From Escherichia phage vB_Ec-M-J, in the sequence record OQ718158.1: a stretch of 64,000 bases of DNA, one strand, 5' to 3'. The notes beneath the pieces were generated by a model. The model ran no database searches and was not told where the DNA came from. It saw only the letters and a list, made by a program, of their open reading frames with translations. Below are positions 168 through 57,592 of this stretch, piece by piece (the first letter of the stretch is position 1; every line of letters starts with the position of its first letter). The position numbers and the translations under genes were made by a program.

Positions 168-2000
168 ATGATTTCAAAATACAAGGAAAGTAAAATGCAA
201 TTAGATAAATTATATACTGACGTAACAAATTTCCTAAATCAGAGCAATACTGATCTTACAAATGAAAATGCAAACAAAGATGCGAAATGCGTCAATACAC
301 ACAGGGATTTACTTGCTGGTATCCTATCTAAGCATTATTCACAAGATGTTATTCCAAAGGAGCTAATGCAGTGGCATAATGATGGTTATGGTCACATTCA
401 TGATTTAGACTACTATATCAGCCCATTAACTAACTGCTGCTTGGTTAACTACCCAGATATGCTAAAAAATGGATTTACCATTGGTTGTGCAAAAATTGAA
501 GAACCAAAGAGTTTTAGTGTAGCATGTACAGTACTGACACAAATTGTACAAGCTGTTGCTAGTTCCCAGTACGGTGGTCAATCGTTGGCTCATATCGACG
601 TGGGTCTTGAACCTTACGTCCAAAAGTCGTGGGATAAGCTATTAGCGAAGCAAAAGGCATATAATCTCAGTACTGAATACATTGAGGAAGAATTACGAAA
701 AGAAGTCTATGATGGGTGTCAAACCTTACTTTACCAGACAAATTCAATGATTAGTACAAATGGTCAAGCAGCATTCATTTCTCTTAGTTTGGGACTGAAT
801 ACTTCAAAATTTGGTAAATTAATCACTGAACAGTACTTAAAAGTACATGAGAATGGTTTAGGTAAAGATAAGATTACTCCTGTGTTTCCTAAAGTAATTT
901 TCTTTTTACAGGACGGAATCAACATGAATAGCGATGATTGCAACTATGACATGAAACAGTTGGCAATGCGTTGTGCATCGAAGAGAATCTACCCAGACTT
1001 CGTTTCTGTGCCGTTAAATCACAAAGTTACAGGAAGTGGCAGTACAGCAGTAACTCCGATGGGTTGTCGTTCATTTTTAGGAAAATGGGAAGATTCCAAT
1101 GGAAATGAGCAATATAACGGTCGTTTCAACTTAGGCGTAGTTTCTATCAATTTACCTCTAATTGCTCTTGAAAGTGCCTCAGATGGAGAGTTTTTTGATA
1201 AAATAGACGAGCATATGAATATTGCATATCGTGCTCAGATGAACCGTGTAGAGCGTTTAAAAGGCACAAAAGCGAAGCAGAATCCGATTTTGTTCATGGA
1301 AGGTGCACTTTCACGTTTAGGGGCAGAAGAAACGATTGACAAGCTATTTTATAACGGATATGCTAGTATTAGTATTGGTTACGTTGGTTTAGTTGAATGT
1401 TCAGAAATTCTGACTGGTTCTATCAGTAAGGAGTTCTGCATGTCAGTACTGAATTATATGAAAGTAAAATGCGATGAGTTCAAAAAAGAGAGTAATATAG
1501 CTTTTAGTCTATATGGAACCCCAGCAGAGTCACTTTGCTACAAATTTGCACGTTGCATCGAATCTAAATACCCTTCAGTACTAAAACGTGATTACATCAC
1601 AAATTCCTTCCACCAACCAGTATGGGTAGCAAGTTCACCATTTGATAAGTGGAGTTACGAAGAGGGTTTTGCTTACCTCAGTAATGGTGGAAACATCAGT
1701 TATGTTGAATCACCCAACCTAAGTAACAATATTCAAGCACTTGAGACTTTAGTCAATTACGCTTACACAAAGATCCCATATTTTGGTATCAACCAGCCAA
1801 TTGACCAGTGTTACGAGTGTGGGTATAAAGGTGAGTTCAGTGTAGATAAACACGGTTTTCATTGTCCAGTATGTGATAATCGCAATGAGAAGACAATCTC
1901 AGTGATTCGTCGTGTTTCTGGATATTTGGGGAACCCATCGTCTCGTGGATTCAACAAAGGCAAACAACAAGAATGTTGTGAGCGTATACAACACAAATAA
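168..2000 (+). CDS. nrdD: anaerobic ribonucleoside-triphosphate reductase (class III RNR)
   Basis: 610 aa; C-terminal Cys cluster (CYECG...CPVC) and glycyl-radical motif RVSGYLG; NrdG gene immediately downstream. Confidence 0.9.
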   Translation: MISKYKESKMQLDKLYTDVTNFLNQSNTDLTNENANKDAKCVNTHRDLLAGILSKHYSQDVIPKELMQWHNDGYGHIHDLDYYISPLTNCCLVNYPDMLKNGFTIGCAKIEEPKSFSVACTVLTQIVQAVASSQYGGQSLAHIDVGLEPYVQKSWDKLLAKQKAYNLSTEYIEEELRKEVYDGCQTLLYQTNSMISTNGQAAFISLSLGLNTSKFGKLITEQYLKVHENGLGKDKITPVFPKVIFFLQDGINMNSDDCNYDMKQLAMRCASKRIYPDFVSVPLNHKVTGSGSTAVTPMGCRSFLGKWEDSNGNEQYNGRFNLGVVSINLPLIALESASDGEFFDKIDEHMNIAYRAQMNRVERLKGTKAKQNPILFMEGALSRLGAEETIDKLFYNGYASISIGYVGLVECSEILTGSISKEFCMSVLNYMKVKCDEFKKESNIAFSLYGTPAESLCYKFARCIESKYPSVLKRDYITNSFHQPVWVASSPFDKWSYEEGFAYLSNGGNISYVESPNLSNNIQALETLVNYAYTKIPYFGINQPIDQCYECGYKGEFSVDKHGFHCPVCDNRNEKTISVIRRVSGYLGNPSSRGFNKGKQQECCERIQHK

Positions 2001-2785: not shown

Positions 2786-2816
2786 AAAAAGCACCCAAAT
2801 GGGTGCTTTGTCTATT
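2786..2816. terminator. bidirectional intrinsic terminator between convergent genes
   Basis: Hairpin gcaccc-aaat-gggtgc flanked by an A-run 5' and T-rich 3'. Confidence 0.6.
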
Positions 2817-4002
2817 TTGGTGTTTGTAACGTTACAAACGAACCAGTTAATGTATCAGAAGTTGGGTTTATACCAGTATACATAACACCATTACTTATTA
2901 CTATTGCAGTAAGGTTGTAAGACATTGAAATGAAATCATCAGAATCAGTTAGTGAATTTGGAATTAAACTAAATGTAAGTGTTGGATTTGGATTGGAACC
3001 CAAACGAGTTGTATAGTTTCCACCAGTTCCATATAAACCATCTGATTTTTTTATACCTATACCAAAATATCCTTCTGAATATACTGGATACAATTTATAA
3101 TCAGTTCCCATATCAAATGCAATCAAAGTTGGGTTTACAACGTTTCCTGATGCAGAAACACCATTACCCAAGTTACCAGCTATTCGGTTACCACATACCC
3201 ACATTTCATCAACCGATGTTGTAGTATTACGTAATACCATATATGTACCATAGTAAGAAACCATAATATCCGAAACGGTGTATGATGCTTTTGTATATTC
3301 TGTGAACGTTGTTAAGGCAGTTGTGTTACCCGTTCCAAGCTGCCCATTATTATTGATACCACATCGAAAAAGTGTATTATTATTTTTTAATATCCAAGTT
3401 CCATTATCAGCAGCTATACATATTTTTTTAACATCAGTACTAATTAATGTGAATTTAGTTACTGCTGATGTGTTTCCAGTTCCTAATGTACCATTAGCAT
3501 TTCTACCCATTCCGTAAGCTGAACCATCATTGAAATGTATAATTATATTATCCACCCAAACATGTATATCTTTTATATTATTGAGTTGTTCTTCTGTAAA
3601 TACACTAGAAAAGTAACTAGTTCTATCTACATAAACATTCGAGAATGATGACACACCCCCAAATGCATAAGTCGTGGTTGAGCATGATAAAAATTCATCA
3701 GTTTTCGTTTGTAATAATATAAATCGTCCAAAGGAACACCAAGCGTTTTTAACATTACTTCGGATAAGGGTCCAGGTAGTACGGTTAGTGCTTACATCAC
3801 CATCACCAAAAATATAATTTGAACCAGCACCACTACCACCACCACCACCAATTCCCCATAACTCACCATTATCATATAATATTATGATAGCAGAATAGTT
3901 GCTCGTTGTTGGTGTTAGTATTTTAGATATATTTGGTGTTGGAGCACGATTTCCGTACTTCACCATTCTTGCAAATGGAAGCATTTTAAGTCTCCTTATC
4001 AT
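2812..4002 (-). CDS. RCC1-like beta-propeller repeat protein
   Basis: 396 aa; repeated G-x-N-x-x-GQLGTGNT-type motifs (four or more); Gly-rich GGGGGSGAGS segment; only minus-strand gene in this plus-strand block. Confidence 0.5.
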   Translation of the reverse strand: MIRRLKMLPFARMVKYGNRAPTPNISKILTPTTSNYSAIIILYDNGELWGIGGGGGSGAGSNYIFGDGDVSTNRTTWTLIRSNVKNAWCSFGRFILLQTKTDEFLSCSTTTYAFGGVSSFSNVYVDRTSYFSSVFTEEQLNNIKDIHVWVDNIIIHFNDGSAYGMGRNANGTLGTGNTSAVTKFTLISTDVKKICIAADNGTWILKNNNTLFRCGINNNGQLGTGNTTALTTFTEYTKASYTVSDIMVSYYGTYMVLRNTTTSVDEMWVCGNRIAGNLGNGVSASGNVVNPTLIAFDMGTDYKLYPVYSEGYFGIGIKKSDGLYGTGGNYTTRLGSNPNPTLTFSLIPNSLTDSDDFISMSYNLTAIVISNGVMYTGINPTSDTLTGSFVTLQTPK

Positions 4003-4051
4003 TATTATATAGTATATTTATGCAACTTTCCTTTAGTTCGCTTTTAGTAAC

Positions 4052-4063
4052 CTCTAATAAATA
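4052..4063 (+). promoter_or_regulatory. late-promoter-like motif CTCTAATAAATA
   Basis: About 33 nt upstream of the 4097 start; same motif class recurs at 13894-13904 and 29867-29877. Confidence 0.35.
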
Positions 4064-13876: not shown

Positions 13877-13893
13877 ACATATAATATAGTACA

Positions 13894-13904
13894 CTCTAAA
13901 TAAT
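13894..13904 (+). promoter_or_regulatory. late-promoter-like motif CTCTAAATAAT
   Basis: About 26 nt upstream of the 13930 start. Confidence 0.35.
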
Positions 13905-13929
13905 ATTACCAACTATAGGAGATGTTATT

Positions 13930-14304
13930 ATGAGTGTACTAGAAATTATTGTTTCAAAAGTTTTAATACCATATTGGAAACCAATTTTGGTAGTAGGAGT
14001 AATGGCAGGTTGTGTTTACGGTGGATGGTCAGCAAATACTTATTATACTGGTTATAAAGAAAGTATTGACCAAAAAATAGAAAAGAAAGTTGATTCTGCA
14101 CTCGCTAAGATGCAGCAAGAAAATGCAAAAAACTATATAGAAACCAAAAAGATAATGCAAGATAATGCTAAAGTTATCGAGACACAAGTGCCTATTATAG
14201 TAGAAAGAGAAGTTTACAAAAATGTATGTCTAGATGAAGATGGCGTTAAACTTCTGAATGAACTTAAACAGAATTCCCTTGCAGCGAGGAATAAATTCAA
14301 ATGA
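13930..14304 (+). CDS. i-spanin-like protein (N-terminal TM plus periplasmic coiled-coil)
   Basis: 124 aa; hydrophobic segment near residues 12-32, then charged helical region; lipoprotein gene follows with 4-nt overlap. Confidence 0.5.
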   Translation: MSVLEIIVSKVLIPYWKPILVVGVMAGCVYGGWSANTYYTGYKESIDQKIEKKVDSALAKMQQENAKNYIETKKIMQDNAKVIETQVPIIVEREVYKNVCLDEDGVKLLNELKQNSLAARNKFK

Positions 14305-16038: not shown

Positions 16039-16058
16039 CGGGACATAATACATCCTAG

Positions 16059-16067
16059 TGATATAAT
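16059..16067 (+). promoter_or_regulatory. extended -10 promoter element (TGaTATAAT)
   Basis: tgatataat at 16059-16067 heading the gene-free locus; no good -35. Confidence 0.4.
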
Positions 16068-16356
16068 GTATATTGTAAAATGACAACGGACATTGAAAAA
16101 TGGATAATGAGAACCTACTTCTCTTGAAAATGTAAAGGATAGATGAGCTTTACCGTTGTAGCGAACAGCAAAAGAAACCTGTTAGAGTACTGGCAATCAA
16201 ACAAACACGAGATAAGACCACGAATCACGGCGACACGGCTGTATAAAGAACTCCAATAAGCACACAGAGAGTTCCTAGATAGATGTATAAGGTTCGCACC
16301 TTACGAATTTGCTAAGGGAGTTCAAGGATTGTGGACGCGATTTTACAAGAAAGTTG

Positions 16357-16373
16357 CGTCCAAAATTTGAGAA
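16357..16373 (+). repeat. direct repeat copy 1 (cgtccaaaatttgagaa)
   Basis: Perfect 17-nt repeat with copy 2 at 16510-16526, within longer imperfect repeat of about 40 nt. Confidence 0.8.
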
Positions 16374-16509
16374 CAGGTACTACTTTGATCGAATAGAGTT
16401 TAGTACTGAGTGCTGTTGATGAAAAGACCAGCGACCGTTGCATATGACTGCGATAGAGAGAAACCGAGCAACCCGCTTTCGCTCTCTAAATTTTGGTACA
16501 GGAAAGATC

Positions 16510-16728: not shown

Positions 16729-17157
16729 ATGAGTAACACAACGAAAATATCCAATACATCTGAATTAACACAAATGTTATTCAAAGAATATTTTGAGTAT
16801 CAAATCAAAAGCGATCATGATTTGGTTCAGACATATTTGAAGAGAATCAAAGATCCATTAAGTTTAAACAAAGGAACTGAATTTTATAACAGTATTTTAG
16901 ACTTTATTAATTTAGTTCATACAAACAGACCTATTGTAGTTTTCTTCTTTGATAAATCAATTCCTGTAGAAGTTCCTGATAATGTATTTTTTGTTACAGA
17001 AACTGATTTAAGTAATCAAAGTACTGTAAGTAGATTAAGGAATTGCTTACTTATAATTTGTGATTCTTCATTATATAACAATAGAGTACTATGGAATAGA
17101 AGTAAGAGAAATGCAGTTTCAGAAATGAATCCTGAAGTTACCTTTATTATTAACTAA
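16729..17157 (+). CDS. hypothetical protein
   Basis: 142 aa ORF. Confidence 0.5.
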   Translation: MSNTTKISNTSELTQMLFKEYFEYQIKSDHDLVQTYLKRIKDPLSLNKGTEFYNSILDFINLVHTNRPIVVFFFDKSIPVEVPDNVFFVTETDLSNQSTVSRLRNCLLIICDSSLYNNRVLWNRSKRNAVSEMNPEVTFIIN

Positions 17158-17187
17158 ATACCATAGAATAACTCTAAGGAGAGATTT

Positions 17188-38549: not shown

Positions 38550-39083
38550 ATGAATAGATTACAACAAATCCTAACGGATAAAAAACCAGTTTTTGAATAC
38601 CGAGTCAAGTTTGCAGTTGAACCTACCAATGAGCAACTAAGTAAAGTATCACAACGCCTAATGGATCGTTATGATGCATTTGATATTGGTGCACTAAAGA
38701 AAACTATTTTCATGGAAAGACCACTAGATTTTTATGAATTAGATTGTGGTGAAATTTGGATGTTTGATTTCAAATGCCACCGTGGTGTTCAATCAAACGT
38801 ACTAATGTATGAAATTGGCAACCTACTAAGTATGACTGAAGCTCTAATCCGTGTACGTAGTAAAGATGAACCACGTCAACAAGAAATGACCGAACTCGAA
38901 GATGATATTGACTTTGACGATTACGAACCAGTAATTGGTGTTGATTTTGGTAAACCAGAAGACAGCCACGATTTAGCTGGTGAAGAACGTGCTGTAACCG
39001 CAGTTAAAGATGCGATTGAAGCAGTAAAAAGTGACAATAAATACTCTCAATATATGAGTGCTGGTTTTGGTAAAAAGGATTGA
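38550..39083 (+). CDS. hypothetical protein
   Basis: 177 aa ORF. Confidence 0.5.
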   Translation: MNRLQQILTDKKPVFEYRVKFAVEPTNEQLSKVSQRLMDRYDAFDIGALKKTIFMERPLDFYELDCGEIWMFDFKCHRGVQSNVLMYEIGNLLSMTEALIRVRSKDEPRQQEMTELEDDIDFDDYEPVIGVDFGKPEDSHDLAGEERAVTAVKDAIEAVKSDNKYSQYMSAGFGKKD

Positions 39084-39645: not shown

Positions 39646-41157
39646 ATGGATAATTTTTTCAGTACTGAAACTACCACAGTACCTAATGGATATGTATATA
39701 CTTCTCACACTGGTGGCAAATATGTATTTCTAGAAGGTTTCTGGTTTAACGACAATAATATGTTAATGGTAGACCCTAAAAAATACCCATCCATGTACGC
39801 AAGTGCTCGACAACAGATTGTTGAGCACAATCTATCTTCTAGTGAATATAAAATTGGTAACAAATATATTCTTGAAGGTAAAGAGTGTACATTTCTTGGT
39901 GAAAATCGTTTCAATTCTAAAGATGGAATTCTACTAACTGAAAGTGAAATTATCACTGAACTAATGGCAGATGACCACCGTGTATATAATGTTTCAAAAG
40001 AAACTCTACAAAAAGAATGGAACTCCCTAAAATTCTATATCCTTCCACCATATGCTGATGATATTTCTATTCCAGCAGGTATGGAAGTTAGTGGATTTAA
40101 ATTCATCCCTAAAAATCACCGTTTTGTTGATGCAAAATCTGGACGTCCAGTTGACCCAGCAATGACACGTAAACTTTCCGATGAAGGTATGCGTATTGCT
40201 CGCCAATTAGCACCAAAAAACAAACTAATTCCAATTAAATCTACTTTAGTACAAGGTAATACTCGTTCCGAATGGAATGGTAAAGAATTTTGTGATAATG
40301 ATGGTAATGTTGTAATTCCAGAACAAAATGCACATGTAATCTTTAATGCATATCAGCAATTTGTTAAGGCTAACCCTGGTGATTTTCCTTCACTAACTGG
40401 TGATCATGAATCAGGTGAACAACGTTTTGGTTCAGGTGAAAAGCCAGAACAACCCAAACAACCAGTAAAACAGCCAGTATTCGCAACAAAAGAATCCATT
40501 AATGAAGCAGATGAAGAGATTGAAGAAACTGAATCTGTTGTGGTTCCACATGGTTACCGCATTACTTCAAATAAAGGTAAAACATACATTAAACAAAAAA
40601 ATGCATGGTTTGATGTAGAAACTAAAAAACAACTAAATTCTAGTGCTGCAAAAAGTGTTGAACGTGCTGCTCAACGTGATATAATTCGCCATAATAGTTC
40701 TGGTGCAATGAAAATCGGAACTAAAGTAAAATCTAAGAAAGGCACAGAGTATTCTTATATCGGTGGTAACCGCTTTATTAGTGCTGATGGTAAATTGATT
40801 CCAAAATCAACTGCTGATGACATTCTTGCTCGTTATGATGCAGAACGTGCTGATAAGAAAGAAGAAGAACCTGAAGATAAAGTAGATGCTGAAGTATCAA
40901 GTACTGATGTAGTTGAACCAAAAGCTGAACCTACTAAAGAACCAGAACCTGTATCAGAGCCAGAACCTGAAGTTCCTGCTCCTGGTGATGAAGTTCAATC
41001 ATTGGCTTCACGAATTAAAGAATCACCTTACGCTAAGAAAATTACAGTACTCTTAACGCGTGGTGATGAGGTTTCTCTAATTGCTGCTGACATTTTACTA
41101 TCTGGTAAAAAGGATGAAACAGTGCAAATTTTAAAATCATTAAATAAGAATGATTGA
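39646..41157 (+). CDS. hypothetical protein
   Basis: Start set at MDNFF with RBS aaggagaa (track start 39604 overlaps the upstream gene). Confidence 0.5.
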   Translation: MDNFFSTETTTVPNGYVYTSHTGGKYVFLEGFWFNDNNMLMVDPKKYPSMYASARQQIVEHNLSSSEYKIGNKYILEGKECTFLGENRFNSKDGILLTESEIITELMADDHRVYNVSKETLQKEWNSLKFYILPPYADDISIPAGMEVSGFKFIPKNHRFVDAKSGRPVDPAMTRKLSDEGMRIARQLAPKNKLIPIKSTLVQGNTRSEWNGKEFCDNDGNVVIPEQNAHVIFNAYQQFVKANPGDFPSLTGDHESGEQRFGSGEKPEQPKQPVKQPVFATKESINEADEEIEETESVVVPHGYRITSNKGKTYIKQKNAWFDVETKKQLNSSAAKSVERAAQRDIIRHNSSGAMKIGTKVKSKKGTEYSYIGGNRFISADGKLIPKSTADDILARYDAERADKKEEEPEDKVDAEVSSTDVVEPKAEPTKEPEPVSEPEPEVPAPGDEVQSLASRIKESPYAKKITVLLTRGDEVSLIAADILLSGKKDETVQILKSLNKND

Positions 41158-42944: not shown

Positions 42945-42968
42945 CTTCGAAAATAAAGAAAAAAAGAT

Positions 42969-42996
42969 GTTGACAACGCCGAATGATGTGTTATAA
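42969..42996 (+). promoter_or_regulatory. strong sigma70-type promoter P1 (TTGACA-16-TATAAT, TG-extended)
   Basis: ttgaca 42969-42974, tgt-tataat ending 42996. Confidence 0.65.
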
Positions 42997-43061
42997 TGAC
43001 CATCACGAAGCAAGTTTTCAAAATCACAAGATGTGAGATTGAAAAAGAAATAAAAAAGTTG

Positions 43062-43089
43062 TTGACAAGCCTGAACGATGTGATATAAT
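43062..43089 (+). promoter_or_regulatory. strong sigma70-type promoter P2 (TTGACA-16-TGaTATAAT)
   Basis: ttgaca 43062-43067, tataat 43084-43089 with TG at 43081-43082. Confidence 0.65.
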
Positions 43090-43152
43090 GACCACATCAA
43101 GACGGCAAAGAGAAATGCCTTTTTAAATACACGGATGATTCATGAAGTAACA

Positions 43153-43193
43153 AAGGAACTGATAAGTTAAAAATTCTTTTAACACAGTTCCTT
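43153..43193 (+). other. leader hairpin (9-bp stem, 23-nt loop) between promoters
   Basis: aaggaactg ... cagttcctt; overlaps the -35 of P3. Confidence 0.4.
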
Positions 43194-43220
43194 TACTTTT
43201 GCCCACGGATTGGCTATAAT
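43192..43220 (+). promoter_or_regulatory. sigma70-like promoter P3 (TTTACT-17-TATAAT)
   Basis: tttact 43192-43197, tataat 43215-43220. Confidence 0.45.
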
Positions 43221-43260
43221 AGAAACCTAAACGATTTTATCCAACAAAAGGAAAATATAC

Positions 43261-50595: not shown

Positions 50596-50639
50596 TTAAA
50601 TATTTCCTCAGAATAGATTATATATTAAGTATTTATTTT

Positions 50640-57497: not shown

Positions 57498-57592
57498 AGA
57501 GTCCCCTCCTATAACGATGAACTATATATTCATAACCCATCTTTTGTTAATATACTTATATTTAGTTTAATTCACAAAAACACTATTATCTA

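Follow-up and report, generated by a model that had tools for sequence, protein, structure and literature searches.

A short A/T-rich sequence at positions 4052-4063 of Escherichia phage vB_Ec-M-J (record OQ718158.1) recurs almost unchanged upstream of other genes, which raises the question of whether it marks a class of phage promoters and, if so, how much of it is recognized. We addressed this question across a stretch of 64,000 nt of this phage, hereafter the window. The initial annotation had proposed a T4-like late promoter with a shifted, 11-nt consensus. The late-promoter idea is supported by the position and strand of the core hexamer TAAATA, its avoidance elsewhere, its conservation, the lack of a -35 element, the structural and lysis genes that it precedes, and the gp55-family sigma factor encoded by the lineage. 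It also agrees with a prediction published for phages CBB and GAP32. The 11-mer consensus, on the other hand, was over-specified. Our results suggest that T4-style late promoters of a Rak2-like coliphage carry this motif as their -10-type element, with an additional layer of hairpins at three genes. Based on sequence comparison and on analogy with T4, we assign this reading a probability of about 0.8.

The window is 99-99.8% identical to the Escherichia phages EC.P1, fEgEco12, WPEC5, and BF17, approximately 86% identical to 121Q and PBECO4 (genus Asteriusvirus), and approximately 70% identical to Klebsiella RaK2, Cronobacter GAP32, Pectobacterium CBB, Yersinia fHe-Yen9-04, and others. By these sequence identities, the source phage is a Rak2-like (Asteriusvirus) jumbo coliphage, and it belongs to a group of jumbo myoviruses of approximately 350 kb. 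The genes of the window are ordered as follows: nrdD/nrdG, tail-fibre genes, a long series of small plus-strand genes, the neck, sheath, tube, and virion-protein genes, and finally fibre genes on the minus strand.

A bioinformatic prediction of this motif class already exists in the literature for the phage group, and the class is of the T4/gp55 late-promoter kind. In Buttimer et al. 2017 (PMC5259590), ATAAATA was reported at 35 sites 5' of structural genes in CBB, and also in GAP32, and was proposed to be a late promoter, with a citation of Abbasifar et al. 2014. The known picture of T4-type late transcription is unchanged by our analysis. What the analysis provides is a testable map of 13 to 15 predicted late promoters in this 64-kb stretch of an Asteriusvirus jumbo phage, with the consensus corrected to a 7-bp core, and the prediction that several giant-phage genera place a promoter inside a hairpin over the ribosome-binding site, as T4 does, at their neck and sheath genes. 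This map may be of use for annotation, for building late-expression cassettes for therapeutic jumbo phages, and for studying the action of a gp55-type sigma factor in phages where neither gp33 nor gp45 is detectable.

Distribution and conservation of the TAAATA core

The sequence at 4052-4063 is CTCTAATAAATA and that at 13894-13904 is CTCTAAATAAT; the third copy, again CTCTAAATAAT, occupies 29866-29876, one base before the coordinate initially given. The sequences of these three near-identical motifs and their placement 25-40 nt 5' of plus-strand starts were borne out, with gaps of 33, 27, and 31 nt, respectively, between the TAAATA core and the ATG. TAAATA was likewise found, as initially described, 5' of the sheath gene (31740-31745, 50 nt from the start) and of both minus-strand fibre genes (57559 and 62627). 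The regions upstream of the two fibre genes do share a longer block of approximately 24 nt, AACTAAATATA[A/T]GTATATTAACAA.

The hexamer is rare in this DNA. The two strands of the window together carry 35 copies of TAAATA, whereas dinucleotide shuffles gave 95 +/- 10, which puts it last in abundance among the 64 A/T-only hexamers (class median 89.5). We also counted A/T-only hexamers in the homologous 46-kb loci of relatives, and in all six examined TAAATA was the rarest or had one of the three lowest counts. The few copies present are concentrated upstream of genes: 14 of the 35 fall between -75 and -16 of a same-strand ORF start, where 1.2 were expected (p = 3e-12), and only two antisense copies were found in these same upstream windows. 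In an unbiased ranking of all 4096 hexamers by their sense-strand occurrence 5' of ORF starts, TAAATA ranked first. When curated starts were used, 17 of the 35 copies were in promoter position; this curation covered the starts 3984, 28156, 29906, and 195 (from annotation or the position of the Shine-Dalgarno sequence) and added the small ORF 34543, and some of it was done with the motif already known. Depending on the set of starts, the 14 to 17 promoter-position copies lie 27-61 nt 5' of the start on the sense strand. Since TAAATA is avoided elsewhere, yet is found at a fixed distance 5' of genes, it bears the signature expected of a strong single-box promoter, and selection would act against copies of the box elsewhere in the genome. 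Two of the promoter-position copies are doubtful: the copy at 149 precedes an NrdD fragment, and the copy at 39038 lies inside a coding sequence and is kept only in close relatives. The candidate boxes are listed in Table 1.

Table 1. Predicted late-promoter boxes and hairpins in the window, with distances from the end of the box to the start codon
Feature	Sequence	Position	Strand	Distance (nt)	Start codon and gene	Remarks
Probable divergent late-promoter box	ATAAATA	4015..4021	-	30	ATG 3984, RCC1-repeat gene	Shine-Dalgarno sequence AAGGAG
Late-promoter box	ATAAATA	4057..4063	+	33	ATG 4097	898-aa protein; annotated as minor tail protein in EJP2
Late-promoter box	CTAAATA	13896..13902	+	27	ATG 13930, spanin-like gene	CBB homologue annotated as structural protein
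Late-promoter box	CTAAATA	17154..17160	+	27	ATG 17188	Overlaps upstream stop codon; homologues in CBB and A4 annotated as structural proteins
Late-promoter box	CTAAATA	28103..28109	+	46	ATG 28156	
Late-promoter box	CTAAATA	29868..29874	+	31	ATG 29906, neck / head-tail adaptor gene	Start as annotated in fEgEco12 and A4
Late-promoter box	ATAAATA	31739..31745	+	50	ATG 31796, tail sheath gene	
Possible late-promoter box	TTAAATA	34503..34509	+	33	48-aa ORF 34543-34689	ORF annotated in fEgEco12 and A4; box kept in close relatives only
Late-promoter box	ATAAATA	34805..34811	+	35	ATG 34847, tail tube gene	
Late-promoter box	CTAAATA	35582..35588	+	34	ATG 35623, second tail tube gene	Right after intrinsic terminator 35550-35573
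Late-promoter box	ATAAATA	38515..38521	+	28	ATG 38550, virion structural protein	Overlaps upstream stop codon
Late-promoter box	TTAAATA	41140..41146	+	33	ATG 41180, virion structural protein	Within 3' end of preceding gene
Late-promoter box	ATAAATA	50630..50636	-	34	ATG 50595, structural protein	After terminator
Late-promoter box	CTAAATA	57559..57565	-	61	ATG 57497, long tail fibre proximal subunit	1988 aa
Late-promoter box	CTAAATA	62627..62633	-	59	ATG 62567, tail fibre protein	1049 aa
Hairpin around 13896 promoter	TAGTACACTC / GAGTGTACTA	13887..13941	+		ATG 13930	Arms 13887-13896 and 13932-13941
Hairpin around neck-gene promoter	AGCACCTC / GAGGTGCT	29861..29900	+		ATG 29906	Arms 29861-29868 and 29893-29900
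Long-range hairpin around sheath promoter	AAATCCTTCAA / TTGGAGGATTT	31729..31792	+		ATG 31796	Arms 31729-31739 and 31782-31792

We then compared the upstream DNA of orthologous starts, which were found by tblastn in up to 12 relatives. Wherever an ortholog was recovered, in relatives with as little as approximately 70% identity, TAAATA was unchanged 5' of 13930, 17188, and 28156, of the neck, sheath, and both tube genes, and of 38550, 41180, 50595, and 57497. The hexamer was exact although the flanking sequences diverge and the proteins are only 50-85% identical. For instance, it was kept at the 13896 site in 121Q, A4, RaK2, GAP32, CBB, and EJP2, at the 28103 site in 12 of 12 relatives, and at the position equivalent to 57559 in GAP32 and CBB. 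A site-by-site blastn comparison showed that all alignable promoter-position copies were TAAATA in 121Q, A4, RaK2, EJP2, GAP32, and CBB. The non-promoter copies at 22863, 24481, 26096, 26731, 35643, 39038, 41172, 43124, 50597, and 55091 were mutated in at least one relative, and in the more distant relatives most non-promoter copies were mutated.

The genes preceded by a box encode the neck/adaptor, the sheath, two tube paralogues, virion proteins, three fibre-type proteins, and a spanin-like protein. As expected for late promoters, the boxes are thus found 5' of virion and lysis genes in the sense orientation. Approximately 12 of the 15 box-preceded genes are structural, against approximately 12 of 65 others (p = 1e-5 in a rough Fisher test, most of these 65 genes being interior members of operons opened by a box).

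Hairpins around three predicted promoters

By analogy with T4, transcription would start approximately 6 nt 3' of the box, yielding leaders of approximately 20-55 nt for the structural and lysis genes. Three of the boxes, those of the 13930, neck, and sheath genes, are enclosed by predicted hairpins. In each of these, the 5' strand lies before the late start predicted by this analogy, and the 3' strand covers the Shine-Dalgarno sequence or the AUG.

The neck copy of the motif had initially been placed in the loop of a terminator-like hairpin. The hairpin is real, with a folding energy of -17 kcal/mol (z = -5.3); its description as a canonical terminator does not hold, given its wide arms, the lack of a call by the terminator scan, and the loss of the T-run in some relatives. 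Its 8-bp outer arms are approximately 24 nt apart, and the box sits at the 5' edge of the loop, or partly within the stem in the GAP32 group. The 3' arm, GAGGTGCT, is the Shine-Dalgarno sequence and is followed by T6 and then the ATG. The hairpin is kept in 11 relatives, where the 3' arm is invariably the Shine-Dalgarno sequence, 5-9 nt from the ATG. Furthermore, the two arms co-vary, with CCTC/GAGG in one group, CCCC/GGGG in another, and a U-G wobble in EJP2. In an alignment of the arms only, hand-anchored on the C-run and the G-run and composed of related sequences with few independent events, 79.9% of the stem was paired, against 36-53% when the partners were slid. One pair was C-G in six sequences, U-A in five, and unpaired in none, and the core pairs were approximately 100% paired. 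The predicted late transcript of the neck gene lacks the 5' arm and is almost unstructured. By analogy, the neck hairpin is better read as a putative device sequestering the Shine-Dalgarno sequence, of the type of T4 genes e and soc, that encloses a late promoter.

It is rather unlikely that this hairpin is simply the intrinsic terminator of the upstream operon, with the box in its loop by chance. A G+C-rich 8-bp stem followed by T6 is indeed present in the window, 121Q, A4, GAP32, and Yen9-04, and no other terminator was found between 28432 and the neck gene. However, the terminator scan, which called clean terminators at 28409, 30703, 34466, and 35550, did not call this hairpin, and the four clear plus-strand terminators nearby have loops of 4-5 nt rather than outer arms some 24 nt apart. 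The T-run is absent or reduced to 2-3 nt in RaK2, Hallingskeid, and EJP2, while the stem persists there. In addition, the 3' arm always is the Shine-Dalgarno sequence and co-varies with the 5' arm, and the sheath and 13930 genes present the same promoter-in-hairpin layout without any T-run. Intrinsic terminators combine a G+C-rich stem, a short loop, and a conserved U-tract, a combination that the hairpin at 29861-29905 does not present. Termination and masking of the Shine-Dalgarno sequence are mutually compatible roles, and partial terminator activity is possible in this phage.

The sheath hairpin pairs the 11 nt immediately 5' of the box, AAATCCTTCAA, with a sequence that includes the Shine-Dalgarno sequence. 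Its z-score is -5.1, and the predicted probability that the Shine-Dalgarno sequence is unpaired is 0.00 in read-through RNA. The pairing was predicted in all relatives. Among the single changes seen in the 5' arm, two are compatible with wobble pairing and two disrupt it; the Shine-Dalgarno sequence never varies, and the stem shows no double-sided covariation, with one mismatch each in A4 and XbC2. Alternatively, the 5' arm may be conserved as an upstream promoter element. At the third site, the 3' arm GAGTGTACTA spans the G of the AUG and the following three codons of the 13930 gene. This hairpin has a folding energy of -22.6 kcal/mol (z = -6.2); it presents a compensatory change from C-G to U-A in 121Q and has an analogous hairpin in RaK2. 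In GAP32, CBB, and EJP2, a terminator is found upstream of the 13930 orthologue in place of the hairpin. The neck, 13930, and sheath hairpins all show signs of evolutionary maintenance, which for the sheath consist of wobble changes only and stand beside two mismatch variants, and the predicted late transcripts lose the structure at these sites.

These observations are consistent with a second level of control over the predicted late promoters. The 13930, neck (29906), and sheath (31796) genes would each be a late gene that follows non-late genes of the same strand with no terminator between them; the 5' arm of the hairpin lies directly 5' of the box, and the 3' arm is formed by the Shine-Dalgarno sequence or the start codon. 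Transcripts reading through from upstream would have their ribosome-binding site masked, so that translation of early read-through RNA would probably be blocked. Transcripts initiated at the late promoter would not contain the 5' arm and could be translated, as in T4 e, soc, 49, and I-TevI. Other late promoters, such as those at 35582 and 50630, would be insulated by an upstream intrinsic terminator instead. Transcripts from upstream may read into the neck and sheath genes: no plus-strand terminators were predicted at 28432-29860 or at 30733-31796, and an extended -10 promoter is present at 30742.

The arrangement resembles the hairpins of T4 genes e, soc, 49, and I-TevI, which sequester the ribosome-binding site and contain an internal late promoter (reviewed by Uzan and Miller 2010, PMC3014915). 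In both cases, the late promoter is embedded in the DNA encoding the 5' strand or the loop, and the Shine-Dalgarno sequence or the AUG forms the 3' strand. The 5' strand is missing from the late transcript, and the gene concerned is a late one that comes after earlier genes of the same strand. Here, in contrast, the arrangement is a prediction, and it concerns the neck, sheath, and spanin-like genes across several jumbo-phage genera. The available text of PMC5259590 does not describe a promoter-in-hairpin arrangement for Rak2-like phages.

We also considered masking of the Shine-Dalgarno sequence as a rule for all late promoters and rejected it, as the case is convincing only at 13897, 29869, and 31740. 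At the 4058 site, accessibility of the Shine-Dalgarno sequence was 0.23 versus 0.83, but the pairing partner is not next to the box and this site faces a divergent gene. The remaining box sites showed no difference in Shine-Dalgarno accessibility. Rfam and tRNA scans of the window returned no matches, and a covarying stem-loop at 28115-28132 follows the 28103 box, beginning at the predicted 5' end of the transcript.

A candidate sigma factor for the boxes

The late promoter of T4 is TATAAATA at -13 to -6, and it is read by gp55 together with gp33 and the gp45 sliding clamp. The boxes of the window satisfy the general description of such promoters, in that each is a short A/T-rich -10-type element related to TATAAATA with no -35 element. 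We therefore turn to the sigma factor that might read them. A gp55-like sigma factor, CBB_244, was reported for CBB (PMC5259590). We found that the C-terminal 120 residues of CBB_244 match PHROG 234, "late sigma transcription factor" (E = 5e-19), and that the protein has no Pfam match. Homologues of CBB_244 were detected by tblastn in all 32 of the 32 Escherichia records of our collection and, more distantly, among annotated cyanophage gp55 proteins. One of them (QXN76311) is encoded by BF17, a 99% relative of the window, and is 75.6% identical to CBB_244. In BF17, the gene adjoins gp47/gp46-like genes, as cyanophage gp55 genes do. A profile built from six sequences of the family matched T4 gp55 in the late-transcription complex (PDB 7D7C chain F) with E = 1e-17; the match is strong only when the profile contains cyanophage gp55 sequences, and a single-sequence search of the PDB gave a weak, marginal match to T4 gp55 (E = 0.22). 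The gp55-like proteins of the jumbo phages carry approximately 140 extra N-terminal residues. We infer from these sequence matches that the lineage encodes a gp55-family sigma factor; its gene lies outside the window, and its presence in this phage is deduced from the 99%-identical relatives. Late in infection, this protein most likely directs the host RNA polymerase core to the boxes.

It is improbable that the boxes are read instead by the host sigma-70 or by a second phage sigma factor. TAAATA is A/T-rich and resembles a -10 element, the gp55-like protein is tied to the boxes by sequence comparison and analogy, and, according to PMC5259590, relatives do encode a second, CBB_513-like sigma factor of the sigma-70 family with regions 2-4. 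However, TAAATA matches TATAAT at only three of six positions and lacks the final T. The best match to TTGACA with a spacer of 15-19 nt averaged 2.93 upstream of the boxes versus 2.99 at random positions, and a TG extension was absent from the boxes except at one site. The boxes thus do not present the combination typical of sigma-70 promoters, i.e., a TTGACA-like -35 element, a 16-18 nt spacer, and a TATAAT-like -10 element. Moreover, the same window contains a distinct class of promoters, with the extended -10 box TGATATAAT and GGGACA or TTGACA upstream, and this class precedes non-structural genes. Finally, the motif agrees with the predicted late promoters of other gp55-encoding phages.

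The closest of these are CBB and GAP32, which belong to the same phage group, present the same box at orthologous positions before the same structural genes, and possess the same gp55-like sigma gene. The difference is that C and A are about equally frequent in front of TAAATA in the phage analysed here. In the T4-like Aeromonas phage Aeh1, the predicted late promoter is CTAAATA, and T at -13 is poorly conserved among T4-like phages (Nolan et al. 2006, PMC1524935). Aeh1, whose gp55 has diverged, therefore offers a parallel for the boxes that begin with C, although Aeh1 is a true T4-like phage and C and A alternate at this position here. The likeness to the T4 late promoters themselves consists in the single short A/T-rich -10-type box, the lack of a -35 element, the location before virion and lysis genes, and the gp55-family sigma factor. 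The boxes of the window differ from them in that they require neither T at -13 nor A at -12, and the sigma factor of the jumbo phages differs by its extra N-terminal domain of approximately 140 aa. In addition, homologues of gp33 and gp45 were not found in CBB by its authors (PMC5259590), so the T4 mechanism of activation is not simply transferable. A tentative possibility is that an N-extended gp55-type sigma factor reads a minimal (A/C)TAAATA box without gp33 or a phage clamp and without the T4 kind of coupling to replication, and that timing is provided by promoter-embedded hairpins masking the ribosome-binding site at late-after-early junctions. For Rak2-like phages, our literature search returned neither mapped transcript 5' ends nor data on the timing of expression, and the PA5oct paper describes sigma-70-like motifs only.

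Extent of the predicted recognition sequence

Across 13 well-placed sites (13 to 15 sites overall), the six positions of the TAAATA core are invariant. The base 5' of the core is C at seven of the 13 sites, A at five, and T at one. The position two bases before the core and the base after it are mostly A, and the bases at -3 and -2 show no conservation. The consensus derived from these sites is a(A/C)TAAATAa, with (A/C)TAAATA as the predicted functional core.

These frequencies leave very little room for the full 11-mer CTCTAAATAAT being the true recognition sequence and the shorter matches being degenerate versions of it. Two exact copies and one near copy of the 11-mer do lie 5' of genes, but the initial annotation had named enrichment upstream of genes as the test of the motif, and it is the TAAATA core, not the long 11-mer, that is enriched. 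With at most one mismatch, CTCTAAATAAT had four matches in the window versus 2.9 expected, and CTCTAAATA had two versus 0.8 expected, i.e., no enrichment in either case. The exact 11-mer occurs at two places only in the window, and the 4052 copy aligns to these only if an indel is allowed. From the base frequencies of the 13 sites, we roughly estimated that 0.8 pairs of sites should share all five flanking bases. The likeness of the 13894 and 29866 copies over 11 nt also has a source of its own, because C(C)TC ends the 5' arm that pairs with GAG(G) at both hairpins. Orthologous promoters change these flanks and keep TAAATA, and CTCT at 4052 lies outside the homology block described below.

The pattern is most implausibly a by-product of composition, i.e., of A/T-rich intergenic DNA and TAA stop codons: the intergenic DNA is A/T-rich and three copies overlap an upstream stop codon (17155, 28104, and 38516), but most sites are clear of stop codons, sense copies outnumber antisense copies by 14 to 2, the remaining 62 A/T-only hexamers (without TAAATA and its reverse complement TATTTA) are commoner, with 60-108 copies each, and none approaches the upstream enrichment of TAAATA, and the hexamer is exact across genera while adjacent A/T-rich bases change.

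The window contains no copy of the canonical T4 box TATAAATA, against 6-8 expected. This absence is explained by the overall depletion of TAAATA together with the bases that precede the core, namely A or C at -1 and predominantly A at -2. It does not reflect a forbidden sequence, because relatives use it: TATAAATA is present at the orthologue of the 4057 site in 121Q, EJP2, and 7t3.

At the 4052-4063 site, homology to nearly all relatives, including those with 99% identity, starts at 4057, the first base of ATAAATA. CTCT (4052-4056) is not kept even in the 99%-identical relatives, because the homology block opens exactly at ATAAATA. In the four relatives examined at this position (fEgEco12, 121Q, EJP2, and 7t3), nrdG is followed by a terminator and then by (C/T)ATAAATA. 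In the window, a 1.2-kb minus-strand gene for an RCC1-repeat protein (2812-3984) is inserted here; the relatives examined lack it at this place. The insertion, which is particular to this phage, sits at the homology boundary and leaves CTCT outside the conserved block. The RCC1-repeat gene is probably preceded by a late-promoter box of its own, facing away from the conserved one (Table 1).

Late-type boxes and the lineage's sigma factor

The canonical T4 box TATAAATA has no copy in the whole window, against 6-8 expected. It is in use among relatives: the orthologue of the 4057 site, the late-type box that precedes the gene for an 898-aa protein, carries it in 121Q, EJP2 and 7t3, for example. 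In this lineage the gp55-family sigma factor carries ~140 extra N-terminal residues relative to the gp55 of T4 and of cyanophages, and for CBB no homologue of gp33 or gp45 is reported (PMC5259590). The N-terminal extension of the sigma factor might take the place of these two partners.

The RCC1-repeat gene possesses its own late-type box (4015-4021), and its product weakly matches a family of tail proteins. We found the interval 2812-4056 to be without homology even in relatives that are 99% identical elsewhere, and the end of homology at this insertion coincides exactly with the 4057 promoter box.

Features downstream of predicted late promoters

The promoters of the two fibre genes have in common a block of ~24 nt, AACTAAATATA[A/T]GTATATTAACAA (57541-57564 and 62609-62632, minus strand), and the leader is long in both cases (59-61 nt). 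These features suggest that a promoter-leader module was duplicated or that the two promoters share a regulatory site lying downstream of the box.

A stem-loop with a 7-bp stem (GAAGAAC acaa GTTCTTC; 28115-28132, plus strand) begins exactly at the predicted transcript 5' end from the 28103 promoter (box CTAAATA). The stem covaries among relatives (GAAGGAA/TTCCTTC and GAAGGGT/ATCCTTC) and the stem-loop is not associated with a T-run. This element may be a 5'-terminal hairpin that stabilizes the mRNA.

Other promoter-like sites and reading frames

Upstream of non-structural genes of the window, we identified another promoter-like class defined by the extended -10 box TGATATAAT. These sites are probably early or middle promoters.

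Positions of TGATATAAT boxes and of selected genes
Feature	Position	Strand	Remark
TGATATAAT box, GGGACA ~13 nt upstream	16059, 27135, 46141	+	three copies
TGATATAAT box, GTTGACA upstream	42989, 43081	+	two copies, inside the 42945-43260 gap
TGATATAAT box	30742	+	immediately past the neck-gene terminator
48-aa ORF	34543-34689	+	past the sheath terminator and ahead of the first tube gene
RCC1-repeat protein gene, 390 aa	within 2812-4056	-	in the interval from the nrdG terminator to the 4057 promoter
gp55-family sigma factor gene	L009:2902-3840 (BF17); L008:31072-31932 (CBB)		outside the window

For the NrdD-like ORF (168-2000, plus strand), agreement with the family profile begins only at position 101, and the N-terminal ~100 residues are apparently absent or separately encoded upstream of the window. 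The Rfam search revealed no intron; a TATAAT box (~133) and a TTAAATA box (~148) lie just upstream of the ORF. In the stretch 16039-16399 (361 nt) there is neither a convincing ORF nor a tRNA, Rfam gave no match, and relatives also have a gap here. Finally, the 48-aa ORF is preceded by a TTAAATA box 33 nt upstream and is annotated in fEgEco12 and A4.
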